Positions 2 to 44,036 of a stretch of 64,000 nt of DNA are shown here, one piece after another (within the stretch, counting starts at the first letter, position 1; every line of letters starts with the position of its first letter). The stretch spans positions 2,534 to 66,533 of the forward strand of contig CAYWGD010000026.1 in NCBI GenBank assembly GCA_964457335.1, read 5' to 3'. The notes beneath the pieces are model-generated. The model did not search any database. It saw only the letters and a list, made by a program, of their open reading frames with translations, and was not told the origin of the DNA. The stretch is from an uncultured Enterobacteriaceae bacterium (lineage in GTDB: Bacteria; Myxococcota_A; UBA796; SXON01). Both the position numbers and the translations under genes were made by a program.

Positions 2-778
2 GGCATCTACGTCGCCACGTACGCGCCCCCCCACGGCAACGCCGCCACGAAGGCGACGCTCACCGCGAAGCTCGCGGGCGGCTCCAAGGCCCAGGTCGAC
101 ACGCGCGACGTGCCGCTCGTGCCCACCCGCGCCACCGGCCTCGCGCTCACCGCCGACCCGCCCGCGCTCCCGGCCGGCGCCACGAGCCTCGCGGTCGTCG
201 CGAAGGTCACGGGCCCCGACGGCGCCGCGCTCGCCGGCCGTACGCTCAAGCTCGCTGCCAACGGCGCGAAGCTCGCCGAGGTCAAGGACCTCAAGAACGG
301 CGAGTACCGCGCCGCCTTCACCCCCACGGGCAAGGGCCCGGTGGAGGTCACCGCCGCGGTGGCGGCCCCGCCCACGCAGAACCCGCTGGCCCGCGTGGTC
401 GTCCTCCCGGCCCGCGAGCGGCTCCCCCCCGACGGCCTCTCGAGCGCGATGCTCACCGTCGCCACCGTGGACGAGTTCGGCTCCCCCGTCGCGGGCGTGC
501 TCGTCGAGCTCCGCGTCGTGAGCGGCGACGGCTCCGTCCCCGCCACGGCCACCACCGACGCCGCGGGCGTCGCCCAGATCTACTACACGGCCGGCCGCAA
601 GAACGGTCTCGTCGGCATCGACGTCGTCGCGGGGGACCGCACCGCCGGCGTCACGCTGATCCAGGCCCCGCCCGACCTCGCGCTCCCCGACCTGCCCATG
701 CCCACCTCGGCGGCCACGCGCGCGCTCGCCGACGAGCTCGCCGCCACGACCGCCACCATCCGGATCGAGCGGCAGTAG
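2..778 (+). CDS. Ig-like (invasin/Big_1-type) domain protein, 5'-truncated by the window edge
   Basis: Frame is open from position 2 (GIYVATYAPP...). Repeated beta-rich motifs DLKNGEYRAAFTP and TTDAAGVAQIYYTAG resemble bacterial Ig-like domains. Confidence 0.55.
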   Translation, partial: GIYVATYAPPHGNAATKATLTAKLAGGSKAQVDTRDVPLVPTRATGLALTADPPALPAGATSLAVVAKVTGPDGAALAGRTLKLAANGAKLAEVKDLKNGEYRAAFTPTGKGPVEVTAAVAAPPTQNPLARVVVLPARERLPPDGLSSAMLTVATVDEFGSPVAGVLVELRVVSGDGSVPATATTDAAGVAQIYYTAGRKNGLVGIDVVAGDRTAGVTLIQAPPDLALPDLPMPTSAATRALADELAATTATIRIERQ

Positions 779-906
779 CGCTCCGATCTCGGGGCACCTC
801 CTCCGGAGTGCGGCGGCGTGGGTGCCTCCGGCGCGCGTCGGTGGTTCCCGTGCCTTCGGCGGCGCCCCCCGGGATGCCGAGCCGCTCGGGACCCGCGCGA
901 CGCCGA

Positions 907-1109
907 AGGAGCCGGGTCGAATACGACAAGCGTCCTGAGGAGCGGCACCGAATACGACAACGGCGCCCCGAACGGCGGCGTGGCCGGCGGCCCGCTCAAA
1001 AAAAGCACGCTTGGTCCGTTGGCCCGGGAGCGCGCGCCCCCGCCGGAAGGGACGGTTGTCGTACTCGGTGCCGCTCCTGAGCCGGCTTGTCGTATTCGAG
1101 GCCGCTCCT
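907..1109. repeat. Intergenic element with four 23-bp units AGGAGC-N5-CGAATACGACAA, two direct and two inverted, 31-bp period
   Basis: Units at 907-929 and 938-960 (+), and 1056-1078 and 1087-1109 (-). One mismatch among the fixed positions. Lies between convergent genes. Confidence 0.9.
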
Positions 1110-1152
1110 GGGGCGGCGGGCGGCCGATCGGCCCCCCGCGCCCCGGCCCGGC

Positions 1153-4100
1153 CTACTTCACGATCACCCGGTCCCCGCCGCTCCGCCCGAAGGTCTCGGG
1201 GCTGTACATCTCCTCGGCCTTGGCGGGCGGCACCACGAAGTCGCCCGGCGTGGTGGCGCGCGCGACGTAGGTGTAGGCGTGCACGCCCTCCCAGAGGAGC
1301 GACGAGAAGGCCTCCACGCGCTCGTCGCGGAGGTTCTCGTGCTCGTACCAGGGCCGCATCCACCACCAGTACGCCGGCTTGGCGTCCGGGTCGGCGGGGA
1401 GCGTGCCGGTCACCGCGAGGTCGGGGTTCAGCACCTCGAGGCCGGCGGGGAGCGGATCGACCAGCGCGACGTGGTAGCGCCGCATCGGCGTGGCCATCTC
1501 GACGCGGACGCGCACGCGCGCGCCGGCCTTGATGCGCCAGGTGCCGTCGGCGTCGCGGGTCACGTCGGCGGGGTCGTCGATGGGCTCGTAGCGGCGGCTC
1601 ACGGCGAAGCCGCGGTCGGCGGCGTCGGGATCGAGGTCGGTAGGCGCGTAGCGTAGGCCGAGCCGGTAGTAGAGCCGGCCGGCGCCCTGCTTCCCGACGA
1701 CGAGGTCGGCGTCCCCGTGGTCCTGGAGCCAGGCCATCGGCACGTCCACCTGCGCGCGCTCGGTCGAGCGGCCCGCGAAGGTGCGCTCGCCGGCGAGGCC
1801 GCTCCCGAGCCACACGCGCGCCACGAAGTCGGGCGTGGTGCCCTCGTAGGCCTTGAAGTAGCGGTCGAGCGCCAGCAGGATGTGGGCGTTCTCGGTCGTG
1901 CTGTTCCAGCGGCCGGCGACGCGGTGCGCAAGGAGCCCGTTCACGAGCTTGGGGACCAGCTCGTCCTTCGGGGCGGTCCGGACGAGCGCCTCGAGCAGCA
2001 CGCCGTCGGCGACGCGGTCGGAGGTCAGGAGCACCTGCTCCCCGTCGGTGTAGCCGGTGACGAAGTGCGCGCCGGCCGCGCTCTCGGTGACGTGGTTGTT
2101 CAGCCAGGCGCGGATGGTCGCGACCTCCTTGTTCGCCTTCGCGTCGACCAGCGTGGGCAGCACCCAGCCGAGGCCCTGCGCACCGAGCCCGTCGGGGCCG
2201 GCCTCCGCGAGCAGCGCCTTCGCCTTGGCGGGGGCGGGCTCCCCTGCGAGGGAGAGCACGTGCACCGCGTAGGCGCGGATCGCGCGGCGCGACTCGGGGG
2301 AGTACCACCGCGGGATGTGCGTCTCGATGGCGCGCGTGTAGTCGAGCGCGCGGTCGAGGCTCCGCGCGTCGATCGGGAGCTTCGCGTCGCGGGCCCGCAC
2401 GAGCGCGTGCGTGACGTGCACGCCCAGGTAGGGCCAGCCCTCGTCGCCGCGTCGCCAGAACGCCCAGCCGCCGTCGGGGTTCTGACGCCGCGCGAGGCGC
2501 TCCACGTCGGCGCGCATCGTGGCGTCGATCTCGGCCTGGGAGGGGAGCCCCTCGGCCTCGAACGCGCCGAGCACGTCCTTGAGCGCGGCCACCGACAGGA
2601 GCCGCGAGGCGAGCTGCTCGTTGCACTCGAAGGGGTAGGTCTGGAGGTAGAGGAAGGCGTCGGTGAGCGCCTGGAGCTGGGTGGAGGAGAGCGTCACCTC
2701 GAGCCCGCCGAACTGCGGCCACACGTCCTTCGGGGGGGCGAGCGGCTGGGCGATCGCGCCGTCCTGGTCGAAGGTGCCGTAGGTGGCGAAGGCCTCGGTG
2801 GTGGCGGGGGTCCAGACGGGCAGCTCGCCGGAGGCGGCGTCGGCGTAGGTGCCCGACGCGGCGGCGAGCTGGTAGCGCGCGGTGCCGGCGCGGGCCGCGG
2901 CCACGGGGAAGCGCACCTCCACGCGATCGTTGGCGGGCACGACGAGCCGCCGCCCCGCCCGATCCGTGCCCGACGTGAGCCCGGCCGACACGTCGGGGAG
3001 CACGCCGAGGTTGGCAGCGCGGAGCGCCACGTCCACGGTGAGCGGGGCGTCGGTCTGGTTCTGGAGCACCACGGGCAGCTCGGCGCGGTCGCCGAAGTTC
3101 AGGAAGCGCGGCGCGGAGGGGCGCACCATGAGCGGCAGGCGCGCGGTCACGTCGGCGGAGCCGGTGCCGAAGGCGCGCTCGCGGGCCACCGCCACGACCA
3201 TCACGCGGTAGCGCGTGAGCGAGTCGGGGAGGGCGAGCGGCACGGTCGCGCGGCCGCTCCGGTCGGTGACGACGCTCGGTGCCCACAGGGCGACGGCGGA
3301 GAAGTCGGCGCGGACCTGGATGGCCGGCGCGGCCTCGCCGCCCTCGGCCTTCGCCTTCTTCTGGGGCTCCATCGGAGCGGCGCTCCGCGCGACCGGCGCC
3401 GCCTCGTCCGCCATCTCGGCCATCGGCGCCGCCATCGGGGCGGACTGGAGGAGCACGAGGTCTCGCCCGCCGCCCCCCGGGCCCATGCCGCGTGCACCGA
3501 GCCCGCCGATCGCGAGCGCGCCGGGGTCGGCGAGGGTCACCCACTGGCGGAGGTGCTCGGCCTGGATCGCGTCGCCGCGCGGCGCGTAGAAGACGGTGAG
3601 CGGATCGGGCAGCTCGTACCCGGTGAGCGCGAGGACGGCCTCGTCGACGGCGACCACGGCGAGCTCCGCGCCGGGCTCGGGCGCGCCGGTCGGGCCGGTG
3701 ACGGTGAGCTGAATCTCGGTCTTCCCGCCCGGGGTGAGGCGGGCCTCGACCGGGGCCACCTGCACCGAGAGCGTGCGAGTGAGGCGCGACACGTCGAAGG
3801 TCAGCGTGCCGCCCGCGTAGGCCGCGCGCTTCGGGAGGTCGGCGCGCGGCTTCCCGTCGTCGCCGGTGCGGGTGCGCGCCCCGACCACGTCGACGGCCAC
3901 CGTGAAGTCGGGGACGTGTGCCTCGCCGACGGCCACCTCGAGCGGGGTGGTGGCCTCGGTGATCACGAAGGGGCGGGTCTCCAGCAGGTTCCCGCCGGCG
4001 CGCACGGTGAGGAGGCCCTCCGCGGGCCAGAACGGCGCCTGCACGAGGAAGCGCGCCGTCTCGCCCACGGCCCAGCTCTTCTTCTCGGGCACCAGCGTGA

Positions 4101-7100
4101 CGCGCTCCTGCTCGACGCCCCGATCGGGCACGAGCTGCTCGCCGGCCACCCACACGCGGATCTCCGTCGTGTTCTTGCGGCCGTGCGGGTCGGTGACGGT
4201 GGCCACGACCGCGTAGGTCCCGCCCGCGTCGGGCGTGAACGTCGCGGTGCCGGCCCCCGCGTCGAGTCGCTTGGACGCCACCTCCTCCGGCACCTCCTTC
4301 CACTCGCCGCCCACGCGCCGCCACACGAGGCGGCGGAACGAGACCTCGATCGCGCCGGTGCCCGCGGCCTTGCCGGCACGGTCCACGACCAGGGCCTCGA
4401 CCTCGACCGGGGACTTCGCGGCGACGTACGGCTTCGCGGTCTTCAGCCCGACGTACCAGGCGGCGGGGTGCACGAGGAAGTCGCGCGACGCGGTCCACGC
4501 CTGCCGGTTCACGTCTTCGACGGTGGCCTGCGCGTGCACGGTCATCGGGCGCGTCGGGGTGAGCGCGGCGAAGTGCACGCCGAGGTGGTGCTCGCCGGCG
4601 GCGTCGGTGACGCCCTCGAGCGTCACGGGCGGCGTGTAGGGCTCCGGCTCGAACCACCACTTCCACCACGGCGACCAGGGGCCGAAGCTCCAGTCCTCGC
4701 GGCCCGGCGGCACGAAGGTCGCGGGCGTGGCCGACACCTCCCAGCGGACGGGCGCGCTCGCGAGGCCCCCGCCGGCGTAGTAGCGGGCGGCCACGTCGAC
4801 CGTCGCGTCCTCGCCGAGCGCGTAGATGCCGTCGGCCCCGGCGGCCGACACCTCGAACTCCGGCGTTCGGTACTCCTGGATCTCGAAGGCGTGCCAGGTC
4901 GAGCCTTCGTCGGCCACGAGCTCGATCTGGGCGGCGCCGAGGTCGGGGGTGTCGGGGAGCTTCAGGTCGAAGGTGAAGCCGCCGAGGCCGGACATCTTCG
5001 CCACGCCCTCGCCGAGCGGGTTGCCGAGGCTCGACTTCGCGATCCAGCGCACCGTCGCGCCCTCCGCGCGGCGGAGCGTCGTCTCCGGGTCGGGCTCGGC
5101 CATGCGGAGCCAGCCGCGCACGTGCACGGTCTCGCCGGGCTTGTAGAGGTGCTTGTCGTCGAACACGTACCAGCGGAGCTGGTCCATCTGTTCGGCGCCG
5201 ATCCAGCTGCCCTCGTACGCCCACGGCACCGCGGGGAGCAGCGCCGTGTCGTCGCCCACGCGCGCGACGAGCCCGAGCGCGTCGTCCACCTTCAGGCGGG
5301 CGAGGCCGTGCGCGTCGCTCTTCGTCGCGCCCTCCTGGCCCAGGAGCTCGACGGTGGCGCCGTCGACCGCGCGGCCGTCCGCGAGGCTCGTCACCCAGGC
5401 GGTCACGGCGGCGGGCTCGCGGATCGCGGTCAGCCCGAGCTTCGTGACCTGCACCCAGCCGATCCACTCGGTGCGCTCCCAGCGGCTCTTCGGCTGGTTC
5501 GTGGGCTCGACCTGCACGACGAAGTGGCCCGTGCCGCCGCCCAGGTACGGGGCGAGGTCGATGCGGGTCTCCACCTTGCGGTCGGGGTCGCTCGCGACGG
5601 GCACGGTCCCGGCGAACACGCGCGTCCCGGGGAGCTCGCCCTTCCGCGCGTCCTCCCAGCGCCAGCGGCTCCACCACTGCGTCCAGGCCTTCCAGTCCGC
5701 CGGCGTGACCTCGTGGATCTTCACGCGGAGCGAGGCGTGGTTGGTCGTGAAGACGGAGACGGAGGGGGTGCCCGCCGGCTCGACCACGACGAAGGGGTTG
5801 GGGGGCCCGGTGAAGCTCTTGTCGGCGGCGCCCACGTCCACCGAGAAGGTGCGGGCCTCGGGCAGCGCCTGGCCGAAGGTGTCGCGGATCCCGGCGGCGA
5901 CGCGCACCTTGTAGGTGGTGCGGGGGGCGAACGCACCGTGGATGCCGACGGTGTTCCCCGAGGGCACGAGCGCGAGGCCGGCGACGGTGGGCTCGATCGT
6001 GATCGTCGCGGGGTCGAAGGCCTCCTCGTCGAGCGGGTTCGAGAACTCCATGGCCCAGGAGGCGTCGGGCGGGCAGGGGTTCTGCCAGCACGTAGGCGCC
6101 GACACGGTGAGCGGGCCGAAGGTCCGGAAGGAGAAGGACTGCTCGCCGGTGGTGGGGAGCGGGCCTTCGGCGGAGGGCGCGCCCTTCGCGACCACGACGG
6201 AGTAGCTCGTGCCGTTGGAGAGGCGCTCGGTCGGCACCACGACGACCTGGCGGTCCGGGTGCTCGGGCGGACGCGCCGCGAAGGCGGGAGGGACCTCGTC
6301 CGGGCGCGCGAGGCGCACGGGGACGGTGCGGCCGCCGCCGCGCACCTGGATCGAGGCGAGGAGCGCGTCGGCGGTGACGGCCTGGTCGAAGCCGAGCACG
6401 AGCGCGGGCTCGAGGGGCTGGGGCGTGTGCTCGTCGGGCCAGGTGCTCGTGAGCGAGAGCGGCGGGGTGGCGAAGGTCCACGAGACCGCGGCGTCGAGCG
6501 CGGTCCCGTCGGCGGCGCGCGTGCCGGCGGGGATCTCCGCGGTGTAGCGCGTCGCCATCGGGAAGCGTCCCTCGGGCTGGAAGACCACCGTCTTCGTGCC
6601 GAGCCAGCGCCACTCGCCGGGCGGCGTCGGCGTGAGCTTCACCGGCACCGTGGCGGCGGCGGTGTCCGCGTCGGTGAGCGGCACCATGGGCCGCGAGAAG
6701 GTCGCGGAGAGGTGCGGGGCGAGGGGGACGTCGCCCTCGGGGGCGCGCCGGAGCACGGTGAGCGGGCCGGTCGCGACCTCGGGGGCCTCCGCGGTCGCCG
6801 GCGGCGGGAAGGGGAGGTTCGTCGTGGCGCCGGTGCGCGGCGGGGGCGTGGGGCCCTTGCGGAGGGCGAATTCGACGGCGTCGTCGGCGTCCGCGGGCAG
6901 CGGCGGCAGGCGGCCGAGCAGCGCGTCGGTCTCCGCGGCGGAGAGCGGCGTCGCGGGCGGGAGCGGGAGCGTGGTGGAGGCGCCCGCGGCCGGGCGCGCC
7001 TCGTAGAGCTCCATGACGAGGCCCTCGGCCTCGGGATCCTCGACGAACATCACCTTTCCCTCCGAGGCCGCGGTCGGGGTCACGGGCGCCGAGGACGCCG

Positions 7101-7182
7101 GGGCCTCCGGCTGCACGGGCGCGCGGAGGCACGCCGCGAGGAGCGCGAAGCCGGCGGAAGAACGGAGCGGGGACCAGCGCAT
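1153..7182 (-). CDS. Alpha-2-macroglobulin family lipoprotein with N-terminal Ig-like repeats
   Basis: Start re-assigned to MRWSPLRSSAGFALLAAC (lipobox). MG2-type motif DKHLYKPGETVH, IQEYRTPEFEV, LPDSLTRYRVMVVA, thioester-type YPFECNEQ, C-terminal EERDERVEAF-like segment and PPAKAEEMYSPE. Confidence 0.92.
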   Translation of the reverse strand: MRWSPLRSSAGFALLAACLRAPVQPEAPASSAPVTPTAASEGKVMFVEDPEAEGLVMELYEARPAAGASTTLPLPPATPLSAAETDALLGRLPPLPADADDAVEFALRKGPTPPPRTGATTNLPFPPPATAEAPEVATGPLTVLRRAPEGDVPLAPHLSATFSRPMVPLTDADTAAATVPVKLTPTPPGEWRWLGTKTVVFQPEGRFPMATRYTAEIPAGTRAADGTALDAAVSWTFATPPLSLTSTWPDEHTPQPLEPALVLGFDQAVTADALLASIQVRGGGRTVPVRLARPDEVPPAFAARPPEHPDRQVVVVPTERLSNGTSYSVVVAKGAPSAEGPLPTTGEQSFSFRTFGPLTVSAPTCWQNPCPPDASWAMEFSNPLDEEAFDPATITIEPTVAGLALVPSGNTVGIHGAFAPRTTYKVRVAAGIRDTFGQALPEARTFSVDVGAADKSFTGPPNPFVVVEPAGTPSVSVFTTNHASLRVKIHEVTPADWKAWTQWWSRWRWEDARKGELPGTRVFAGTVPVASDPDRKVETRIDLAPYLGGGTGHFVVQVEPTNQPKSRWERTEWIGWVQVTKLGLTAIREPAAVTAWVTSLADGRAVDGATVELLGQEGATKSDAHGLARLKVDDALGLVARVGDDTALLPAVPWAYEGSWIGAEQMDQLRWYVFDDKHLYKPGETVHVRGWLRMAEPDPETTLRRAEGATVRWIAKSSLGNPLGEGVAKMSGLGGFTFDLKLPDTPDLGAAQIELVADEGSTWHAFEIQEYRTPEFEVSAAGADGIYALGEDATVDVAARYYAGGGLASAPVRWEVSATPATFVPPGREDWSFGPWSPWWKWWFEPEPYTPPVTLEGVTDAAGEHHLGVHFAALTPTRPMTVHAQATVEDVNRQAWTASRDFLVHPAAWYVGLKTAKPYVAAKSPVEVEALVVDRAGKAAGTGAIEVSFRRLVWRRVGGEWKEVPEEVASKRLDAGAGTATFTPDAGGTYAVVATVTDPHGRKNTTEIRVWVAGEQLVPDRGVEQERVTLVPEKKSWAVGETARFLVQAPFWPAEGLLTVRAGGNLLETRPFVITEATTPLEVAVGEAHVPDFTVAVDVVGARTRTGDDGKPRADLPKRAAYAGGTLTFDVSRLTRTLSVQVAPVEARLTPGGKTEIQLTVTGPTGAPEPGAELAVVAVDEAVLALTGYELPDPLTVFYAPRGDAIQAEHLRQWVTLADPGALAIGGLGARGMGPGGGGRDLVLLQSAPMAAPMAEMADEAAPVARSAAPMEPQKKAKAEGGEAAPAIQVRADFSAVALWAPSVVTDRSGRATVPLALPDSLTRYRVMVVAVARERAFGTGSADVTARLPLMVRPSAPRFLNFGDRAELPVVLQNQTDAPLTVDVALRAANLGVLPDVSAGLTSGTDRAGRRLVVPANDRVEVRFPVAAARAGTARYQLAAASGTYADAASGELPVWTPATTEAFATYGTFDQDGAIAQPLAPPKDVWPQFGGLEVTLSSTQLQALTDAFLYLQTYPFECNEQLASRLLSVAALKDVLGAFEAEGLPSQAEIDATMRADVERLARRQNPDGGWAFWRRGDEGWPYLGVHVTHALVRARDAKLPIDARSLDRALDYTRAIETHIPRWYSPESRRAIRAYAVHVLSLAGEPAPAKAKALLAEAGPDGLGAQGLGWVLPTLVDAKANKEVATIRAWLNNHVTESAAGAHFVTGYTDGEQVLLTSDRVADGVLLEALVRTAPKDELVPKLVNGLLAHRVAGRWNSTTENAHILLALDRYFKAYEGTTPDFVARVWLGSGLAGERTFAGRSTERAQVDVPMAWLQDHGDADLVVGKQGAGRLYYRLGLRYAPTDLDPDAADRGFAVSRRYEPIDDPADVTRDADGTWRIKAGARVRVRVEMATPMRRYHVALVDPLPAGLEVLNPDLAVTGTLPADPDAKPAYWWWMRPWYEHENLRDERVEAFSSLLWEGVHAYTYVARATTPGDFVVPPAKAEEMYSPETFGRSGGDRVIVK

Positions 7183-7354
7183 GGGGGCTCTCCGACGCGC
7201 ACAACGCGCGCGACGCCGGGAGCTTACGTCGGGGCACCCCCGCGCGCCGGTCTCGGACTGTCGAGCCAGGGGTGGCGGGGCACGCCGGAAGCCGCGGCCT
7301 CGCGGAGCGCGCGGCCGCTTCCGTGCGACACTTCCGAGAGTCCGGAGCTCGTCC

Positions 7355-9367
7355 ATGCTCGCCTTCCTGCTCGGCGCGGCCTGCTTCGCCGAGAAGCCGC
7401 CGACCGACGGGCCCTGCACCGGCACCCGCACCTACGCCGACGCCGACGGGGACGGCTTCGGGGACCCCGACGCGCCGGTCTCCTCCTGCGAGCGCTCCCC
7501 GAGCGACGTGGACGACGCCTCCGACTGCGACGACGCCGACGCCACGGCCTTCCCCGGGGCCGTCGAGGTCTGCGACGGGGACGACGACGACTGCGACGGC
7601 GCCATCGACGAGCCGGACGCCGCCGACGCGCTCCCCTGGTACCGGGACGACGACGGGGACGGCTTCGGGGACGCCGCTACCACGACGCGCGCCTGCGCGG
7701 CGCCCGAGGGCTACGTCGGGGACGCCACCGACTGCGACGACGACGGCGCGACCGACTTCCCCGGCGCCGGCGAGGTGTGTGACGGCGACGACGACGACTG
7801 CGACGGCCTCGTCGACGACGAGGACCCCGACCTGCTCGATCGCCCGACCTGGTACGTCGACGCCGACGGCGACGGCTTCGGCGACACCACCACCGCGGTG
7901 GTCCAGTGCGACGCGGCCGTCGGGTACGTCGGCGACCCCGGGGACTGCGACGACGCGGACGCGGCGATCAGCCCCGGCGCCGACGACGCCTGCTGGGACG
8001 GCGTCGACCAGGACTGCGACGGCGCCGACGTGTCCTGCCCCATCGAGGGGAACCTCGGCGTCGCGACCGCGGACGTGACGCTCCTGGGCGAGATCTACGC
8101 GGGTCTCGCGGGGGAGGCGCTCGCCGGCGGCGGTGACCTCGACGGCGACGGGCTCGACGACGTGCTGATCGCGGACGAGCACCGCGTGTACGTCGTGCTC
8201 GGCCCGCTCACCGCGGGCTCGCTGGCCTCCGTGCCGGCGCGGACCACCCCCAAGGCCACCGACCTCGACTACGGGGACGCGCTGGCGATCGGCCCGGACT
8301 TCGACGGCGACGGCGCGACCGACTGGGCCGTCGGGGCCCCCGGCGCGGATGACGGCTACGGCGTGGCCTACCTCTCGAGCGGCGCGCCCGTCCCCCGCAG
8401 CGTGCCCGCCTACGACGTGGCCGTCCAGCTCTTCCAGGGCGAGGCGTACGGCGACGGGTTCGGGTCGGCGGTCGCGCTCCTGCCGAGCCTCGACGGCGAC
8501 GGCTACGCCGAGCTGCTCGTCGGCGCCTACGGCGTGGACACGGCGGGTTCGGGGGCAGGCGCGGCCTACGTCTTCGCCGGGCCGACGACGGGCACGCTGG
8601 AGCGGAGCGCCTCGTCGGCCGAGGTCGTCCTGCTCGGCGAGGACGCGGACGACCGCTTCGGCTGGCGCGTCGCGGCCGCCGGCGACGTGGACGGTGACGG
8701 GCTCGGGGACCTCCTCGTGGGGGCGTTCCTGAGCGACGCGGGCGGGGTGTCGGCGGGCGCCGGCTACCTGTTCACGACACCGGCGGCCGGGACGGTCGAC
8801 GCGTCCGCGGCGGACGCGACGCTCACGGGGGCCGAAGGGGACTACCTCGGCTACGCGATCGCCGCGGCGGGCGACGTGGACGGGGACGGCCTCGCCGACC
8901 TGCTCCTCGGCGCTCCGGGCGACGACTCCACGGATGACGCGGCCGGGGCGGCCTACCTCGTGCCCGGCGGGATCACGGGGGCGAGCCCGGTGTCCGCGGT
9001 CTGCGTCGCCCAGGTGCTCGGGGACGTCGCCGACGACGAGGCGGGCGAGTCGGTGGCCGGCGCCGGGGACGTGGACGGCGACGGCTTCGCCGACCTCCTC
9101 GTCGGGGCGGCCGGCAACGACGCGGCCGGCCCGGGTTTCGGCGCCGCGTGCCTGCGGTACGGCCCAGCGTCGGGCGCCGTCTCCCTCTCGAAATGCGACG
9201 CGCTCCTGGTGGGTGACGCGACCGGAGACGCGACCGGCACGCCCGTCGCGGCCGCCGGGGACACGGACGGCGACGGCCTCGCCGACATCCTGGTCGGCGC
9301 CTGGAGCGACGACACGGCCCACACCGCCGCCGGCGCGATCCACCTCTGGTACGGCCGCCCGCGCTGA
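7355..9367 (+). CDS. Lipoprotein with 3 MopE-type (putative metal-binding) repeats and an FG-GAP/integrin-like beta-propeller
   Basis: Start re-assigned to MLAFLLGAAC. Repeats PGAxExCDGxDxDCDG, then multiple AGDVDGDGxxDLLVGA motifs. Ends HLWYGRPR. Confidence 0.85.
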   Translation: MLAFLLGAACFAEKPPTDGPCTGTRTYADADGDGFGDPDAPVSSCERSPSDVDDASDCDDADATAFPGAVEVCDGDDDDCDGAIDEPDAADALPWYRDDDGDGFGDAATTTRACAAPEGYVGDATDCDDDGATDFPGAGEVCDGDDDDCDGLVDDEDPDLLDRPTWYVDADGDGFGDTTTAVVQCDAAVGYVGDPGDCDDADAAISPGADDACWDGVDQDCDGADVSCPIEGNLGVATADVTLLGEIYAGLAGEALAGGGDLDGDGLDDVLIADEHRVYVVLGPLTAGSLASVPARTTPKATDLDYGDALAIGPDFDGDGATDWAVGAPGADDGYGVAYLSSGAPVPRSVPAYDVAVQLFQGEAYGDGFGSAVALLPSLDGDGYAELLVGAYGVDTAGSGAGAAYVFAGPTTGTLERSASSAEVVLLGEDADDRFGWRVAAAGDVDGDGLGDLLVGAFLSDAGGVSAGAGYLFTTPAAGTVDASAADATLTGAEGDYLGYAIAAAGDVDGDGLADLLLGAPGDDSTDDAAGAAYLVPGGITGASPVSAVCVAQVLGDVADDEAGESVAGAGDVDGDGFADLLVGAAGNDAAGPGFGAACLRYGPASGAVSLSKCDALLVGDATGDATGTPVAAAGDTDGDGLADILVGAWSDDTAHTAAGAIHLWYGRPR

Positions 9368-9369
9368 CG

Positions 9370-9390
9370 CCCCCCTGAAAGGGGGATGTA
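9370..9390. repeat. Hairpin motif CCCCCCTGAAAGGGGGATGTA (copy 1)
   Basis: 20/21 identical to 40227-40247. Confidence 0.7.
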
Positions 9391-9452
9391 CTGGTTTCGG
9401 GACGTAGCCGGCCGGCAGTTCGTGGCACACTGACCGGACGCCGGAGTGACCG

Positions 9453-11411
9453 ATGCTCGTCCTGCTCTCCCTGTTCGCCGCCCGCGCGACGGAGATGACG
9501 TTCAGCTGCCCCTCGGTGAGCGCGCCTCCCGACGCGCGGCCGTACTACGACACCGATCCCGTCGCCGTTGCCGACACGGCGTGGGACGAGGTGTACGCCT
9601 GGTTCGACGCGAGCTGCCTCACGACGTGCACGTCGGCGTACCCGGGCGGGACCTGCGAGTCGGCCTCCTGCGTCACCGGGGCCGGCGCGACGCTCGTGTG
9701 GGAGGAGGAGACCCACGAGGACGGCGACTCCATCGACGGGGAGCGGACCACCACCTACACGCTCGAGGTCACGCCGCCCGCCTCGTCCGGGCTGGCGTGG
9801 ACCTCGGCCGCGATCGCGTGGACGAGCGTGGAGTGGTGGTCGGGGAGCTTCAACGACGGCACCAGCGAGACCTACGCCGTCTCCTGGAGCGGAGAGCTGC
9901 AGTCCGGCTGGACCGTGGACGGCTGGTTCGACGCGTACGGGTACGAGTCCCAGAGCACGGGCTCAACGTACGTGACCTACGCGGGGTGGACGTGGAGCTC
10001 CGACGGCTGCGAGTGGGCCGCGGACCACGTCGACGACTTCGACGTCGGCGAGACGATCACCGTCGCGGTGAACGCCGACCCGACCATCGAGGTCGTGTAC
10101 CCCTACTACGTGAGCGAGACCTGCGACACCGAGGGCCCCGGCACCTGGCGCGGGTACATCGACGGGGCGCTCTACGGGGTGGTGGACGAGACCACCTGGG
10201 AGCTCGCCGGGGACGCCGACGGGGACGGCTTCGCCACGACCGACTGCGACGACGGCGACGCCTCGGTGAACCCCTGCGCCGCCGAGGTCGCGCTCGACGG
10301 CGTGGACTCCGACTGCGACGGCGCGGAGGACGTCGACGGCGACGGCGGGGTGGGCGGGGCCGAGGGCGGCGACGACTGCGACGACACCGACCCCACCATC
10401 TACGCCGGCGCTCCCGAGACGCCCTACGACGGCGTCGACCAGGACTGCGACGGCGCGGACCTCACCGACGCGGACGGCGACGGCGCCGACGCGCTGGTCG
10501 CCGGCGGGACGGACTGCGACGACACCGACCCGGCGACCTACGTGGGCGCCCCCGAGACGCCGTATGACCGCGTCGACCAGGACTGCAGCGGCGCGGACCT
10601 CACCGACGTGGACGGCGACGGCTTCGACGCCATCGTGACGGGCGGCAGCGACTGCGACGACACCGACCCCGACGTGGGGGCGGGCCTGGCCGAGGTGCCC
10701 TACGACGGGGTCGACCAGGACTGCGACGGCGCCGACCTCACCGACGTGGACGGCGACGGGGCGGACGCGATCGCCGTCGGGGGCGACGACTGCGACGACG
10801 AGGACGCCACCGCGTTCGTCGGGGGCGCGGAGGTCGCCTACGACGGCGTCGACCAGGACTGCGACGGCGCCGATCTCACCGACGTGGACGGCGACGGCGA
10901 CGCCGCGATCGCGGCCGGCGGCGACGACTGCGACGACGGCGACGCCGACGTCTACGCCGGGGCGGCCGAGGTCGCGTACGACGGCGTCGACCAGGACTGC
11001 GACGGCGCGGACCTCACCGACGTGGACGGCGACGGCGGGGACGCCCTGGCCGCGGGCGGTGACGACTGCGACGACGCCGACGCGAGCGTGTACGCGGGCG
11101 CCACCGAGGTGCGCTACGACGGCGTCGACCAGGACTGCGACGGCGCGGACCTCACCGACGCCGACGGCGACGGCGCCCACGCGCCCGGCGTGGGCGGCGA
11201 CGACTGCGACGACAACGACCCCGACGCCTACATCGGCGCCCCCGAGGTGGAGTGTGACGGCGTCGACCAGGACTGCGACGGGGTGGACAGCTGCCCGCCC
11301 CCCTCCGCGGGCCCGCCCGAGGAGGAGGACACCGGCTGCGGGGGCGGCGGCGCGGCCTTCCTGCTCTCGCTGGGCGTGCTCGCGGCCCCGCGTCGGCGGG
11401 CGCGCCGGTGA
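9453..11411 (+). CDS. Secreted protein: unknown N-terminal domain, 46-aa Asp/Cys-rich MopE-like tandem repeats and MYXO-CTERM-like tail
   Basis: Signal-like MLVLLSLFAARA; repeats YDGVDQDCDGADLTD; C-terminus GCGGGGAAFLLSLGVLAAPRRRARR. Confidence 0.8.
   Translation: MLVLLSLFAARATEMTFSCPSVSAPPDARPYYDTDPVAVADTAWDEVYAWFDASCLTTCTSAYPGGTCESASCVTGAGATLVWEEETHEDGDSIDGERTTTYTLEVTPPASSGLAWTSAAIAWTSVEWWSGSFNDGTSETYAVSWSGELQSGWTVDGWFDAYGYESQSTGSTYVTYAGWTWSSDGCEWAADHVDDFDVGETITVAVNADPTIEVVYPYYVSETCDTEGPGTWRGYIDGALYGVVDETTWELAGDADGDGFATTDCDDGDASVNPCAAEVALDGVDSDCDGAEDVDGDGGVGGAEGGDDCDDTDPTIYAGAPETPYDGVDQDCDGADLTDADGDGADALVAGGTDCDDTDPATYVGAPETPYDRVDQDCSGADLTDVDGDGFDAIVTGGSDCDDTDPDVGAGLAEVPYDGVDQDCDGADLTDVDGDGADAIAVGGDDCDDEDATAFVGGAEVAYDGVDQDCDGADLTDVDGDGDAAIAAGGDDCDDGDADVYAGAAEVAYDGVDQDCDGADLTDVDGDGGDALAAGGDDCDDADASVYAGATEVRYDGVDQDCDGADLTDADGDGAHAPGVGGDDCDDNDPDAYIGAPEVECDGVDQDCDGVDSCPPPSAGPPEEEDTGCGGGGAAFLLSLGVLAAPRRRARR
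10296..11285 (+). repeat. Intragenic 138-bp (46-aa) tandem repeat
   Basis: Anchor GTCGACCAGGAC at 10434, 10572, 10710, 10848, 10986, 11124 and 11262 (exact 138-bp spacing), plus a degenerate unit at about 10302. Confidence 0.9.
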
Positions 11412-14272
11412 GGGCGCTCGTCTTCTTCGGCCTCGCCGCGTGCGTGGCGGAGAAGCCGCCCGGGGACACCGCCGATCCCTGCGCGGGCGTCGTGCTCTAC
11501 GCGGACGCGGACGGGGACGGCTTCGGTGACGACGGGCGCCCGGGGAGCGGGTGCGACCTGGACGGGTACGTCTCGACCGGCGGCGACTGCGACGACGCCG
11601 CCCCCGCGGTGCGCCCCGGCGCGCCCGAGACCTGCGACGGCGTGGACGAGGACTGCGACGGCGCGATCGACGAGGGCGACGCGATCGACCCATCCACCTT
11701 CTACGCCGACACCGACGGCGACGGCTTCGGCGACGCCGCGTCCACCACCCGCGCGTGCGCCGCGCCCGAGGGCCACGTCGCGGACGCCACGGACTGCGAC
11801 GACGCCGACGCCACCGAGTTCCCCGGCGCCGCCGAGGTGTGCGACGGCGACGACGACGACTGCGACTTCCAGGTGGACGAGGACGACGCCACCGACGCGC
11901 CCACCTGGTACGCGGACCTCGACGCGGACGGCTACGGCGACGCCGGCACGGTCGCGGTCTCGTGCCACCCGCCGCCCCGCCACGTCTCGAACGCCGCCGA
12001 CTGCGACGACGGCGACGCGCGGCGCTCCCCCGACGCCAGCGAGCGCTGCGACGGTGAGGACGACGACTGCGACGGGGTCGTGGACGAGGACGCGATCGAC
12101 GCGCCCACCTGGTACACCGACCTCGACGCGGACGGCTTCGGCGACCCCGGCACGCCGGTGGCCGCCTGCGCGCTCTCCGTCGGCTTCACCGACGACGCCT
12201 CCGACTGCGACGACGACGACGGGCGCGTGAACCCCGCCGCCACGGAGATCTGCGACGGCGTCGACGACGACTGCGACGGCACCGTCGACGAGCCCGACGC
12301 CGCCGACGCGCCCCCCTGGTACGCGGACGCCGACGGGGACGGCCACGGCGACGCGGGCGTCGTCACGGCGGCCTGCACGGAGCCCGCCGGCTACGTCGCG
12401 TCCGCCGCCGACTGCGACGACACCGACGCCACGATCAGCCCGGACGCTACGGAGCGCTGCGACGACGTGGACGTCGACGAGGACTGCGACGGGCTCGTGG
12501 ACGACGCCGACAGCGGCGCCCTGGACCCGACGACCTGGTATTCCGACGCCGACGCCGACGGTTACGGCGATCCCGCCGTCACCACGAGCGCGTGCGCGGC
12601 CCCCGCCGCCCACGTCGCGAACGCCGAGGATTGCGACGACACGAGCGCCGCCGTGAGCCCCGCCGCGGACGAGACCTGCGACGAGGTCGACGACGACTGC
12701 GACGGCGCGGTCGACGACGCCGACGACGACGTGGTGGGCGCGCCGAGCTGGTACACGGACGCGGACGCCGACGGCTGGGGGGACGGCGTCGCCGCGGCGT
12801 CCTGCGAGGCGCCCGCCGGCGCGGTGGCCGACGAGGGCGACTGCGACGACACCGACGACACCGTGAGCCCCGACGCCGAGGAGATCTGCGGGGACGGCGT
12901 GGACCAGGACTGCAACGGCGCGGACGCCTCCTGCTCGCTGGAGGGCGCGTACGGCGTGGCGGACGCGGACCTCACCCTCTACGGCGAGGGGTACCGTCAC
13001 TACGCGGGGCGTTCCCTCGCCGGTGGGGGCGACCTGGACGGGGACGGGTACGACGACGTGTTGATCAGCGCGAACGACAGCGTCTACATCGCGATGGGAC
13101 CGCTCGCTGCGGGGACGCTCGCCGACGTGCCCGCGCGGTCCACGTCGACGTCCGCGAGCGACGACTACGGGGACTCCGTGACGATCGGCCCCGACTTCGA
13201 CGGCGACGGCACGGCGGACTGGGCCGCGGGCGCGCGGTATGCCGACGGGGGTGGGGCGAGCTCGGGGGAGGTGTACCTGTTCTCGGGCGCTCCCGCCGCG
13301 GCGAGCACCCGTGCACTCGACGAGGCGGCGCACGTGTTCGTCGGGGCGATGTCCGGCGACTTCCTCGGGTGTGCCGTGGCGCTGCTGCCGAGCCTCGACG
13401 GGGACGGCTACGGGGAGCTCCTGGTCGGGGCGTACGGCGAGAGCCCGCTGAGCGGGGGGGCGGGCGTGGCGTACCTCTTCTCCGGCCCGACGACCGGGAG
13501 CGTCGAGCGCGCCGTGTCCACCGCCGACGCCGTCCTCGTCGGGGAGGCGGCCGACGACTACTTCGGCGCCCGGCTGGCGTCCGCGGGCGACCTCGACGGG
13601 GATGGGCTGGGTGACATCGTGGTCGGCGCGCCCCGGCACGACGCGGGCGGGACCAACACGGGCGCCGTGTACGTATTCACGACGCCGCCCGCCGGGACGG
13701 TATACGCCTCGGCCGCGGACGCGAAGCTCACGGGCTCTTTGGCCGGCACGGTCGGCTACGCGACGGCGGGGGCCGGTGACGTCGACGGGGACGGCCTCGA
13801 CGACCTGCTCGTCGGCGTGTACGACGACGACACCGCCGGCTCGTCCGCCGGCGCGGCGTACCTCGTTGGCGGCGGGCTCGCGGGGGAGAGCGCGGTCGCC
13901 TCGTCCTACACCGCCCGGGTGCTCGGCGACGCGGCGAGCGACCTGGCGGGCACTTCGGTGGCGGGGGCCGGAGACGTGGACGGCGACGGGTTCGCCGACT
14001 TCCTCGTCGGGGCGTACGGCAACGACGCGGGCGGCTCCCGAGCGGGCGCGAGCTGCCTGCGGTACGGCCCCGTGTCCGGCAGCGTTTCCCTCTCGTCGTG
14101 CGACGCGGTCTTCGTCGGGGCCGCCACGGACGACCTCGTCGGCTTCGCGGTGGCCACCGCCGGCGACGTGGACGGGGACGGCTTCTCCGACCTGTTGATC
14201 CCCGCCTACGCGGACGACACGGTCGCCAGCGACGCCGGCGCGATCCACCTGTGGTACGGCCGCCCGCGGTAG
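11408..14272 (+). CDS. Lipoprotein with 7 MopE-type repeats and an FG-GAP beta-propeller (paralog of 7355-9367)
   Basis: GTG start overlaps the upstream stop (GTGA). MRALVFFGLAAC lipobox; same FG-GAP region as the paralog and identical end HLWYGRPR. Confidence 0.85.
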   Translation: MRALVFFGLAACVAEKPPGDTADPCAGVVLYADADGDGFGDDGRPGSGCDLDGYVSTGGDCDDAAPAVRPGAPETCDGVDEDCDGAIDEGDAIDPSTFYADTDGDGFGDAASTTRACAAPEGHVADATDCDDADATEFPGAAEVCDGDDDDCDFQVDEDDATDAPTWYADLDADGYGDAGTVAVSCHPPPRHVSNAADCDDGDARRSPDASERCDGEDDDCDGVVDEDAIDAPTWYTDLDADGFGDPGTPVAACALSVGFTDDASDCDDDDGRVNPAATEICDGVDDDCDGTVDEPDAADAPPWYADADGDGHGDAGVVTAACTEPAGYVASAADCDDTDATISPDATERCDDVDVDEDCDGLVDDADSGALDPTTWYSDADADGYGDPAVTTSACAAPAAHVANAEDCDDTSAAVSPAADETCDEVDDDCDGAVDDADDDVVGAPSWYTDADADGWGDGVAAASCEAPAGAVADEGDCDDTDDTVSPDAEEICGDGVDQDCNGADASCSLEGAYGVADADLTLYGEGYRHYAGRSLAGGGDLDGDGYDDVLISANDSVYIAMGPLAAGTLADVPARSTSTSASDDYGDSVTIGPDFDGDGTADWAAGARYADGGGASSGEVYLFSGAPAAASTRALDEAAHVFVGAMSGDFLGCAVALLPSLDGDGYGELLVGAYGESPLSGGAGVAYLFSGPTTGSVERAVSTADAVLVGEAADDYFGARLASAGDLDGDGLGDIVVGAPRHDAGGTNTGAVYVFTTPPAGTVYASAADAKLTGSLAGTVGYATAGAGDVDGDGLDDLLVGVYDDDTAGSSAGAAYLVGGGLAGESAVASSYTARVLGDAASDLAGTSVAGAGDVDGDGFADFLVGAYGNDAGGSRAGASCLRYGPVSGSVSLSSCDAVFVGAATDDLVGFAVATAGDVDGDGFSDLLIPAYADDTVASDAGAIHLWYGRPR

Positions 14273-22959: not shown

Positions 22960-23152
22960 GAACGGGTGCCGATCCGCGGCGGGATCGGCGAGGTCGTCCT
23001 CGGCGCTCGGGCAGCCGGCCCGCCCGAAGACGGGCGGCCGCCGCGGCGACGTCGGCGCGGGGAGCGATCGCAGGCGGCTCCGTGCCCGGTCGCGCTACGA
23101 TGGGCGGAGGAGGTCCTCCCTGCTCGAGACCGGCGAGGAGCGTCGCGACCGG

Positions 23153-23623
23153 ATGAACCGCGAGGAGCGCGAGGAGCACCGCCGCTGGCGGCGGCGCCGG
23201 CGCCACTCCGGCACCCACGCGCTCGGGGGGCTGATCGCGGGGCTCTTCCTGACCGGCGCGGGCGTCGGGCTCTACGCCGCGGCGCAGGGGGTCGAGCTCC
23301 GGGCGCAGCGGGGCGAGCTCGCGGACAGCCTCGGCTCGCTCGTCACCGCGCTCCGCTCCTACGAGGCGGCCAACGGGCGCTACATCTCGGTCGGCAGCCC
23401 CGTCGAGGCCTACGACGCGCTCGACGCGGGCCGGGCCTACGCCCCCGCCGACGTGCTCGGCTGGCGCGCGGACGGCGTGCGCGGCGTGTACTGGGTGCTC
23501 GGCCGGGAGAACAGCTTCGAGGCCCACGGCATGCTCGACGCCGACGGCGACGGCCTGCCCGCGCACTGGATGGCGACCGAGTCCCGGCCGCCCTACCCGA
23601 TCACGGACGACGGGGTGTACTGA
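23153..23623 (+). CDS. Type IV pilin-like protein with degenerate N-terminal motif
   Basis: Basic leader ending in Gly, hydrophobic segment, then RAQRGE...L..L.TA..SY.....RY in pilin register; C-terminal FEAHGMLDADGDG. Confidence 0.55.
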   Translation: MNREEREEHRRWRRRRRHSGTHALGGLIAGLFLTGAGVGLYAAAQGVELRAQRGELADSLGSLVTALRSYEAANGRYISVGSPVEAYDALDAGRAYAPADVLGWRADGVRGVYWVLGRENSFEAHGMLDADGDGLPAHWMATESRPPYPITDDGVY

Positions 23624-25605
23624 TGGCTCGTCTCCTCGCGCGCGCCGGCGCGGTCCCCCTCGCGCTGCTCGCCGCCTGCATCGACTACAACCCGACCGGA
23701 AAGCCGGAGGACTCGGTGCCGTGGGGCATCGACGACACGGAGCCCCCCGACAGCGGCCCGCCGGACACGTCCGACGACACCGCGCCGCCGCCCGAGGAGT
23801 CGTGCGACGGCGTCGACAACGACGGCGACGGCGAGGTCGACGAGGGCTTCCCCGACGCGGACGCCGACGCGGTTGCGGACTGTGTGGACACCGAGTGTGT
23901 CGTCGCGCTCGACGGGGACGAGGCGGTGTCGGACACGTACACGTGCACGAACGTCGTGGCGCCGCCCGCCGACCCCTGGAACGTGGAGCTGATGTGGGAG
24001 GCGGACCCGATGGTGACGTGCCGGTTCGCCGCGGTCGCGGACCTCGACGCCGACGGCACCGTCGAGATCGTCTGCACCGGGGCGTACGAGGGGGACCGGG
24101 CGTGGGTGCTGGACGGGGCCACCGGCGCGATCGAGGCGCGCTGGGACGTCTTCCGCGAGGAGTCGCACGTCGCGATCGCCGACCTGGACCGGGACGGCGA
24201 CCTGGAGGTCGTCGGCTTCGACCCGGACTTCTACCCGGTGGTGGTCGACGCGGCGGGCGCGCCCGTCTGGCGCGGGGCCATGGCGCTCGCGCAGGGGACC
24301 TACTCCTCGCACCTGGAGATCCGCGATCTCGGCGCCGACGGCGAGCCGGAGGTGGTCACGCACAAGGGTGCCGTCCGCGGGACCGACGGCGCCGTGGTGG
24401 GCCGCTTCGACGCCTCGGGCGAGGCGCAGCCCCTCGAGTTCCAGATCGCGGCGGAGGACCTCGATCTCGACGGTGATCTCGAGCTCGCCTACCAGTGGTC
24501 CGCCTGGGACACGGCCAGCGGGCTCCTCTGGCAGGTGCGGCCCTCGGGGTCGGACCACGGCTTCGCGATCCCCCTGCCCGTGCAGGCCGACGCGGACGAC
24601 GAGGCCGAGCTCTTCTGGACCACGATGGACCACTTCCAGCTCGCCGAGGCGGACGGCACGGTCGTCGACGGGCGCGCCTACTCCGGCACGGACGCCACGA
24701 CGGTGTCGGTCCCGTGCGCGGGCGACATCGACGGGGACGGCGAGATGGAGGTGGTCAGCGTCGGCTCGAACGCCTTCCACGCCTGGAGCGCCCTCGGCGA
24801 GCTGGAGTGGACGGTCCCGATGCTCGACGAGACGCCGAACTGGGGCGGCTGCACCACCTTCGACTTCGATCTCGACGGCGCGAAGGAGGTCGTCGCGCTC
24901 GACCAGGACGCGGTCTACGTGCTCGACGGCCGCACCGGCGCCACGCTCGTCCGCGCGGACGACGGCTTCGACTCCGCGACCATGGGGGACCAGCCGCTCG
25001 TCGTCGACCTCGACGGGGACGGCTCGGTGGAGATCCTGGTCACGAGCCCGTCGACCCTCTACGACACAGCGCTCCACGCCTGGCGCAACGTGAACCGCGA
25101 CTGGCCGCCCGGCACGCAGATGTGGCCGTCGGCCACGTGGTCCGGCACGAGCCTGCTGCCCGACGGGCGCGTGCCGCGCACGCCGCATGCGCCGTGGCTG
25201 ACCACGCAGGTCTGGCGCGGCCAGCCCGAGGCGCCGGTGTTCGGCGCGGACCTGCGGCCCGTGGTGGGGGACACCTGCGTGGCGTCCTGCGCGGACGACG
25301 GCGGCGAGGTGCGCGTGGAGGTGCGCCTGGAGAACCTCGGCCCCGACGAGGCCGAGGCGGGCGCGCCGCTCGCGGTGTACGGGCTCGACACCGGCGGCGG
25401 GCGCGTGCTCCTGTCGGTCCTGACGCTCCCCGACTGGCTCGACGACGGGCGCGCCGCGGCCTCCTGGGAGGTGGTCACGACCACGGAGCAGGCGAAGCGC
25501 GGCCTCGTCTTCGTGGCCGGGGACGACGGCACCGGCTCGTTGGTGTCCGACGACTGCGAGACGGGCAACAACGAGCTCACGTGGGTGCTCACGGCCTGTC
25601 CGTAG
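23623..25605 (+). CDS. Lipoprotein with one MopE repeat, FG-GAP/VCBS repeats and a C-terminal CARDB-like domain
   Basis: TGATG overlap with the upstream gene; LALLAAC lipobox; ESCDGVDNDGDG; repeated DLDxDGxxEIV; C-terminal V.LENLGP...E...GNNEL. Confidence 0.8.
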   Translation: MARLLARAGAVPLALLAACIDYNPTGKPEDSVPWGIDDTEPPDSGPPDTSDDTAPPPEESCDGVDNDGDGEVDEGFPDADADAVADCVDTECVVALDGDEAVSDTYTCTNVVAPPADPWNVELMWEADPMVTCRFAAVADLDADGTVEIVCTGAYEGDRAWVLDGATGAIEARWDVFREESHVAIADLDRDGDLEVVGFDPDFYPVVVDAAGAPVWRGAMALAQGTYSSHLEIRDLGADGEPEVVTHKGAVRGTDGAVVGRFDASGEAQPLEFQIAAEDLDLDGDLELAYQWSAWDTASGLLWQVRPSGSDHGFAIPLPVQADADDEAELFWTTMDHFQLAEADGTVVDGRAYSGTDATTVSVPCAGDIDGDGEMEVVSVGSNAFHAWSALGELEWTVPMLDETPNWGGCTTFDFDLDGAKEVVALDQDAVYVLDGRTGATLVRADDGFDSATMGDQPLVVDLDGDGSVEILVTSPSTLYDTALHAWRNVNRDWPPGTQMWPSATWSGTSLLPDGRVPRTPHAPWLTTQVWRGQPEAPVFGADLRPVVGDTCVASCADDGGEVRVEVRLENLGPDEAEAGAPLAVYGLDTGGGRVLLSVLTLPDWLDDGRAAASWEVVTTTEQAKRGLVFVAGDDGTGSLVSDDCETGNNELTWVLTACP

Positions 25606-35821: not shown

Positions 35822-35834
35822 ACCGGGGGAAACG

Positions 35835-36758: not shown

Positions 36759-36761
36759 CAC

Positions 36762-40235: not shown

Positions 40236-40247
40236 AAGGGGGGTGTA
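40227..40247. repeat. Hairpin motif CCCCCCTGAAAGGGGGGTGTA (copy 2), containing the crtD stop codon
   Basis: 20/21 identical to 9370-9390. Confidence 0.7.
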
Positions 40248-40282
40248 GCTGTGGTCCGCGCCATTCTGAGATAGGGGAGCGC

Positions 40283-44031: not shown

Positions 44032-44036
44032 TACAC

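Follow-up and report, generated by a model that had tools for sequence, protein, structure and literature searches.

A multi-copy inverted repeat with four phased 23-bp sites, probably MITE/REPIN-like in kind, from an apparently Polyangiales-like myxobacterium

Several transposable elements carry more than one transposase-binding repeat at each end, among them Tn7, Mu, Tn402/Tn5053, IS21 and the IR/DR transposons of the Sleeping Beauty type of Tc1/mariner. A different arrangement is found in the REP doublets (REPINs), in which conserved arms enclose a spacer of 20–110 bp whose length is kept and whose sequence differs between copies (PMC3337134, PMC3733652). REPINs are extragenic, often lie between convergent genes, show no target duplication and have hairpin potential (PMC3337134, PMC3733652). 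In the NIMEs of Neisseria, dRS3 repeats (the same as CGTC-1, PMC3733652) bound variable segments of 50–150 bp at many intergenic loci. Descriptions of short interspersed repeats in Myxococcota are sparse, and our literature search returned no repeat family of the kind reported here in myxobacteria.

Here we analyse an intergenic element in a 64-kb window, the term used below for the whole stretch of 64,000 nucleotides under study. The element is built from a 23-nt unit, AGGAGC-N5-CGAATACGACAA, which is present four times (Table 1). Three of the units are exact, and the remaining one has a single mismatch (CGAGTACGACAA, 1056-1067). The start-to-start distance within each pair is 31 bp in both arms. 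With up to three mismatches allowed, the window contains four matches to the unit, compared to 0.02 expected from dinucleotide shuffles. The first-pass annotation had described four 23-bp units in >><< order, paired at 31 bp, and all of them lie where it placed them. The same applies to the 95-bp core with an A7 tract and to the position of the element between two convergent genes. The A7 tract (1000-1006) adjoins the symmetry centre of the core (1008).

Table 1 Positions of the element, its parts and the flanking genes in the window
Feature	Position	Strand	Description
Ig-like (Big_1 / Invasin_D3) surface-protein gene, 3' part	2..778	+	Stop codon 128 nt before the element
Weak outward palindrome extension	893..906	.	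Pairs with 1110-1123
Unit 1, outer left	907..929	+	AGGAGC-CGGGT-CGAATACGACAA; first base is the sharp left family boundary
Left linker, 8 nt	930..937	+	GCGTCCTG; length fixed, letters differ between copies
Unit 2, inner left	938..960	+	AGGAGC-GGCAC-CGAATACGACAA
Core, 95 bp	961..1055	.	Edges (961-~978, ~1031-1055) common to some copies; centre private to the window copy
Unit 3, inner right	1056..1078	-	AGGAGC-GGCAC-CGAGTACGACAA
Right linker, 8 nt	1079..1086	.	GAGCCGGC
Unit 4, outer right	1087..1109	-	AGGAGC-GGCCT-CGAATACGACAA; last base is the sharp right family boundary
Right partner of the weak stem extension	1110..1123	.	Pairs with 893-906
Bacterial alpha-2-macroglobulin (A2M) gene, 2009 aa as called	1153..7182	-	Stop codon 43 nt from the element

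The conserved part of the element spans 203 bp and is non-coding, crossed by nothing but spurious high-GC ORFs. Its 54-nt arms are complementary to each other at 46 of 54 positions. With a longer pairing of 69 nt at 83%, the inverted repeat covers 893-961 / 1055-1123. Neither the rest of the window nor about 1 Mb of related Polyangiales DNA, when scanned, contained a second long inverted repeat.

Within the 64-kb window the element is present once. The exact window sequence is found in three bioreactor metagenome runs (X1–X3), in which the host is present at 14–32x depth and where other copies become visible through the depth, the joints and the consensus loose ends of assembler contigs; the X1 contigs were aligned to positions 880-1136. 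The word depth in X1 is 28–32 on the unique flanks and in the core centre (970-1030). It reaches 490–800 on the left arm (730–800 in the inner left unit), 585–630 in the outer right unit and 860–1180 in the inner right unit. Across X1, X2 and X3, the depth of the arms is 17–40 times that of the unique flanks, with peak ratios of left arm to flank of 28.6, 32.9 and 27.9, respectively, and an absolute depth in X2 and X3 of about half that of X1. The equal ratio in the three runs indicates that the extra copies rise and fall with the host genome.

The joints between contigs locate the ends of the repeat. In X1, 18 contigs part from the window sequence exactly before position 907, while 13, 7 and 2 contigs part from it behind positions 1109, 1110 and 1111. 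The flanks beyond these points are mutually unlike, with an agreement of about 0.5. The contigs diverging at 907 and at 1109-1111 amount to about 18–22 at each boundary, and 13–14 further contigs contain both arms in a like arrangement. Most of the diverging and two-arm contigs have the single-copy depth of the host (23–38). The raised depth of the arms, the contigs with unlike flanks and the two-arm contigs together establish a dispersed family in place of a single copy. The first-pass annotation had proposed a determination of copy number; from metagenome contig depth and joints, we estimate about 20–30 copies in one genome.

Two soil metagenomes and a further bioreactor study also contain low-depth contigs that match the host, together with extra arm copies. 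In these samples the element occupies the same locus, where an exact contig covers positions 1098-1248. The element is a lineage-specific marker in bioreactor and soil metagenomes. As a repeat family, it also leads to fragmented short-read assemblies of the host. The contig recorded for the A2M protein is a single 6.4-kb Logan contig that is broken inside the element. In the Logan short-read assemblies the break falls in the inner right unit, with one contig ending at 1077 and the next starting at 1052.

Comparison of the copies reveals which parts of the element are held constant. Ten observations on other copies, from consensus sequences or joints, all give a length of 8 nt for the linker between the units of a pair. 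The linker sequence differs (GAGCCGGC, GGCGACGC, GAGGACAC, GAGCCGCC, CCGGCCGC, CAGGCCGA, GCCGGCCG, GGCGCCCC, CGGAGCGG, CCGGGACG, GGGGACGG). Since the linker is always 8 nt, the 31-bp phase is a property of the family. The N5 spacer has at least five variants, with CGGGT, GGCAC, GGCCT, CGCCT, GGGGT and GGCCA observed. The two boxes are nearly invariant and contain single-base changes at most, except in one diverged subgroup. In Unit 3, a G is private to the window copy and is replaced by A in most copies, and a C>T change at 1064 is found in 5–6 other contigs. The variable positions, taken from a filtered table of well-aligned copies that is suited to qualitative use only, lie mostly in or beside the linkers: 937, 1080, 1081, 1085 and 1087, with indels at 928-937 (compensating) and 1080-1084. 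The earlier observation that the spacers vary while boxes and phase are fixed, made on the four units of the window, therefore extends to the whole family.

The copies remain similar for about 8 nt on the core side of each inner unit, up to ~968 on the left and from ~1048 on the right. The repeat unit is therefore effectively 31 nt long, and the truly variable core measures about 79 nt. According to the X1 depth profile, similarity continues into the core for about 8–18 nt per side, and a 2122-nt contig matches positions 938-978 with five differences. The centre of the core does not align between copies at 80% identity. By contig coordinates, four other copies, on the 363-nt, 400-nt, 2122-nt and 416-nt contigs, have their inner units 96 nt apart, compared to 95 nt in the window copy. 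By less direct reckoning, two more copies have cores of about 98 and about 109 nt. The total length of the element is about 203–209 bp across the family. The consensus flanks of the other copies are mutually, if weakly, inverted (21 of 30 positions match, shuffle p 0.005) and read GGG|element|CCC, which indicates that the palindrome runs slightly past the units in most copies.

The element belongs to none of the named families tested and is, in kind, probably a MITE/REPIN-like interspersed repeat. Similar to REPINs, it is an inverted doublet with a spacer less conserved than the repeats, and the core is 95–96 bp long in five copies including that of the window. The REP sequence itself is an imperfect palindrome of 20–40 bp with a stem of 5–13 bp, whereas the units of the element are non-palindromic; a mini-stem of 3–4 bp (GTCG/CGAC) is present in some units only. 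No unit contains GTAG, and CGTC appears only in the left linker of the window copy, a segment that is variable between copies. The REP/BIME-like candidate named in the first-pass annotation fails on these two points, as the units are not palindromes and lack a GTAG/CGTC tag. An arm of the element comprises two tandem 31-bp units, as opposed to the one REP of a REPIN arm. In addition, the core does not form a hairpin, and about 20–30 copies is at the low end for REPs.

The element resembles bacterial MITEs (Correia, ERIC and the Tn3-derived TIMEs) in being small, with a length below about 500 bp, in being non-coding, multi-copy, dispersed and intergenic, and in having terminal inverted repeats and sharp family boundaries. 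Unlike MITEs, the window copy has no target-site duplication, the interior is much less conserved than the arms, and no parent IS with the ends of the element is known. Since a weak consensus continues past the units, the true tips of the element are uncertain. The likeness to NIMEs, in which short conserved inverted repeats also bound a variable segment, is only architectural: dRS3 is a 20-bp palindrome found in large clusters, while the units of the element are non-palindromic, doubled and arranged in isolated single modules.

The arrangement of two direct repeats per inverted end, >> <<, with fixed spacing, is shared with the ends of Tn7, Mu, Tn402 and IS21 and with IR/DR ends. With TTGTCGT at its beginning, the inner box is reminiscent of the TGT tips of the Mu/Tn7/Tn402 group. 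In each unit, however, the TGT end is turned towards the core, and AGGAGC/GCTCCT stands at the outer tips in place of TG...CA. In contrast to these transposons, the window copy has no 5-bp target duplication, and the element has no DNA similarity to plasmid-borne transposons. The analogy to IS21, Tn7 and Mu drawn in the first-pass annotation therefore breaks down on the sequence and the orientation of the tips. Read outward from the core, the inner box (T-TGTCGTATTCG) in the units of 907-960 and 1056-1109 fits TGTCGTnTTC, which we take to be the start of the Tn402/Tn5053 terminal repeat. A Tn402-like end was rejected, as the orientation is opposite to that of a transposon tip and blastn against plasmids gave no match. 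We treat the resemblance as a coincidence for now.

Signs of mobility were sought at the window copy and in its relatives. No target-site duplication is present at 907/1109 in the window copy. A single 5-mer, GCCGA, is shared by the flanks (902-906 and 1123-1127), no more than chance would give over the 960 boundary combinations scanned. Among 80 Myxococcota A2M loci (the best at 77% amino-acid identity), none contains the unit and none has the same downstream neighbour, which leaves no empty site for comparison. Accordingly, the relatives examined yielded no empty site, and the other samples carry the element at the same locus. None of the 27 window ORFs tested against Pfam encodes a transposase or recombinase, and the window contains no RAYT (HUH Y1 transposase) gene. 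The searches for target duplications at the window copy and for transposases or recombinases in the window, both suggested in the first-pass annotation, were thus negative. Its proposal of a non-autonomous multi-copy element is borne out by the copy number and the sharp boundaries, and gains nothing from target duplication, empty sites or a transposase in the window. Its alternative of a partition or recombination site is unlikely, given about 20–30 dispersed chromosomal copies. Iterons or a plasmid origin, and likewise a parS/partition site, were rejected in view of the chromosomal context and the dispersed copies.

The family is absent from public catalogues. Scans for the exact unit in GTDB representative genomes, JGI metagenome contigs and IMG/VR returned isolated single matches only. 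These fall in unrelated low- and mid-GC taxa, none has neighbouring units, and we dismissed them as chance matches. Plasmid and phage collections, searched with the element by blastn, contained no match. A synthetic peptide derived from the arm ORFs, intended to detect spurious ORFs across other copies, had no match in a set of 5.8 billion proteins. In a Bacteroidales MAG, the 23-mer pattern is matched exactly or nearly so nine times between positions 557 and 4626, at intervals of about 273, 537–546 and 789 bp. This array was rejected as a member of the family; it is a repeat of its own in a genome of 47% GC.

The sequence of 885-1130 is predicted to form a very stable hairpin on either strand (-158 and -159 kcal/mol, z -7.6 and -7.7), the stability of which stems from the boxes. 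Neither the linkers nor the outer N5 spacers pair between the arms of the window copy, with complementarity at only 4 of the 8 and 2 of the 5 positions, respectively. The arms folded alone are no better than shuffles (z -0.4 to -2.8), and the core folded alone is worse than shuffles (z +2.1 and +2.3). Box sequence and spacing are thus kept and overall complementarity is not, which favours recognition of duplex DNA by a protein. The first-pass annotation had argued for protein-binding sites rather than RNA pairing alone. The fixed boxes and spacing and the unpaired linkers and outer N5 spacers agree with that view, and binding itself would follow from them as an interpretation.

In a search of the whole window, no Rfam family reached its gathering score, neither a known RNA family that would have removed the novelty claimed in the first-pass annotation nor one that could back its suggestion of a structured non-coding RNA; the long hairpin is all that speaks for the latter. 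Below the threshold, the only matches are to miRNA hairpins derived from plant MITEs, with 39 bits where 168 are required and 37 where 197 are required, and they mean merely 'long hairpin'. An intrinsic-terminator consensus was not found in the element, nor was a sigma-70-like promoter consensus in the element or its core. RNA from the locus is represented by one 151-nt metatranscriptome contig (1070-1220), which runs from the 3' end of the A2M gene across the outer right unit into the inner right unit. The contig is apparently identical in two runs, with very low coverage and without strand information, and DNA carry-over is possible. No RNA contig covers the core, and RNA contigs are not deeper on the arms to the extent that the copy number would predict. 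The transcript data are too slight to build on.

With somewhat better than even confidence, we favour the explanation that the element is a copy of a lineage-restricted, non-autonomous family of short interspersed palindromic repeats, MITE/REPIN-like, whose phased sites are bound by a protein. Each arm consists of two tandem 31-bp repeats, each with a putative bipartite 6+12-bp recognition site (AGGAGC-N5-CGAATACGACAA), and the two arms face each other over the core of about 95–96 bp. The four phased sites would be recognised in duplex DNA by a sequence-specific protein whose gene lies elsewhere, a transposase being the most plausible candidate. Once bound, this protein could join the two arms, and copies might thereby be spread or maintained. 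The long 3' hairpin available to both convergent genes would be a by-product. Protein binding, mobility and the identity of the partner protein are what we infer from the architecture and its conservation. The doubled, phased and non-palindromic sites point to protein recognition of double-stranded DNA and not to single-strand hairpin chemistry.

The main difficulty for a purely selfish insertion is that even decay would be expected, while the arms are far better kept than the core. This suggests selection at each locus or gene conversion. Conserved arms around a spacer that is kept in length and free in sequence would be odd for a transposon, yet the same combination is documented for REP doublets. 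The main alternative, which the pattern would also fit, is that the modules are a binding array with a function for the host, each kept at its locus by a host protein on the four phased sites, with movement rare or absent. Possible proteins of this type are architectural or nucleoid factors and, by analogy with REPIN-RAYT systems, a transposase that has become domesticated. In addition to the contrast between arms and core, this explanation would account for the fixed geometry (8-nt linkers and a 95–96-bp core), for the conservation of sequence and not of pairing, and for the central A7 tract, since bending at the midpoint of symmetry would make it easier for the arms to meet. For REPINs, populations that are inherited vertically and associated with the host have been proposed. 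Against it, no candidate protein is known, the locus read here lies between two 3' gene ends with no obvious regulatory position, and none of the related genomes sampled contains the family, as expected of a young selfish family and not of an old host function. On balance, we regard a host-function array as rather unlikely. A bolder proposal, speculative and less probable still, is that the about 20–30 four-site modules, with their 31-bp phase, 95–96-bp spacer and central A-tract, form a maintained genome-wide set and not simply a decaying MITE. They would be served by a dedicated dsDNA-binding protein, possibly a domesticated transposase, and would represent a myxobacterial analogue of REPIN-RAYT on non-palindromic bipartite sites.

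Other readings place the function in RNA, in inversion or nowhere at all. The element might act mainly as RNA, either as a long 3'-UTR hairpin (a bidirectional terminator or an mRNA stabiliser) or as a structured non-coding RNA family. The stable hairpin on both strands, the convergent genes with stops 43 and 128 nt away and the metatranscriptome contig that joins the 3' end of the A2M gene to the right arm are consistent with this. However, neither an Rfam family at gathering score nor a terminator consensus was found, the linkers and outer N5 spacers are unpaired while the boxes are kept in sequence, the core is less structured than shuffles, and RNA depth does not follow copy number on the arms or yield a contig over the core. 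The conservation pattern disfavours RNA as the primary constraint, and we consider a mainly RNA-based role decidedly improbable; a 3' hairpin, terminator or stabiliser activity may exist as a side effect. An invertible DNA switch, in which the arms are recombinase sites and the core flips, would explain conserved inverted repeats around a short copy-specific segment at many loci. The core has no promoter-like site, though, and the element sits between two 3' gene ends. The contigs of three DNA runs, which drop rare variants, contain no strand-changing joints or flipped core, the depth of the core equals that of the flanks, and the 27 window ORFs tested include no recombinase. We therefore hold an inverton to be very unlikely. 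Finally, a chance local duplication, single and meaningless, would agree with the one copy in the 64-kb window, and the first-pass annotation had named a single copy, with no conservation in related genomes and no binding or transcription, as its mark. It is refuted by the depth of the arms in all three runs, by the dozens of contigs with unlike flanks and by the other two-arm contigs.

The preferred explanation, a non-autonomous and protein-bound repeat family, bears on how such repeats persist. The family displays the puzzling REPIN-like pattern on another architecture of doubled, helically phased, non-palindromic bipartite sites. If its partner protein is found, it would provide a second, independent case for the persistence of repeat populations in bacterial genomes.

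The host is, to judge from the genes of the window, an uncultured Polyangiales-like myxobacterium. The G+C content of the window is 74.6%. The A2M proteins closest to that of the window come from uncultured Myxococcota MAGs (77% and 75% identity), and those of Labilithrix and Polyangiaceae are about 58% identical. Genes typical of myxobacteria include a CarH-like MerR/B12-binding regulator beside a phytoene synthase and many proteins with FG-GAP and Cys-rich repeats. The regulator, with its B12-binding domains (35835-36755), is clustered at 33240-37709 with a polyprenyl synthetase and a phytoene/squalene synthase (36762-37709), and the region looks like a light- or B12-controlled carotenoid cluster of the myxobacterial kind. 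Large secreted-type proteins with FG-GAP repeats and Cys-rich 'MopE' metal-binding motifs are unusually dense at 7013-14272, 22966-25602, 39830-48000 and 62775-63941. Paralogous segments lie at about 40.3, 44.0 and 46.5 kb; the three share 65–82% identity. Within coding sequence, positions 43719-43934 contain a tandem (GACACC/GACACG)n array of 6/12-nt period, the predicted product of which is a long Asp-Thr repeat. At 50441-54280, the window encodes a large SNF2-family helicase, in which a long N-terminal region without a Pfam match accompanies the SNF2-related domain and Helicase_C.
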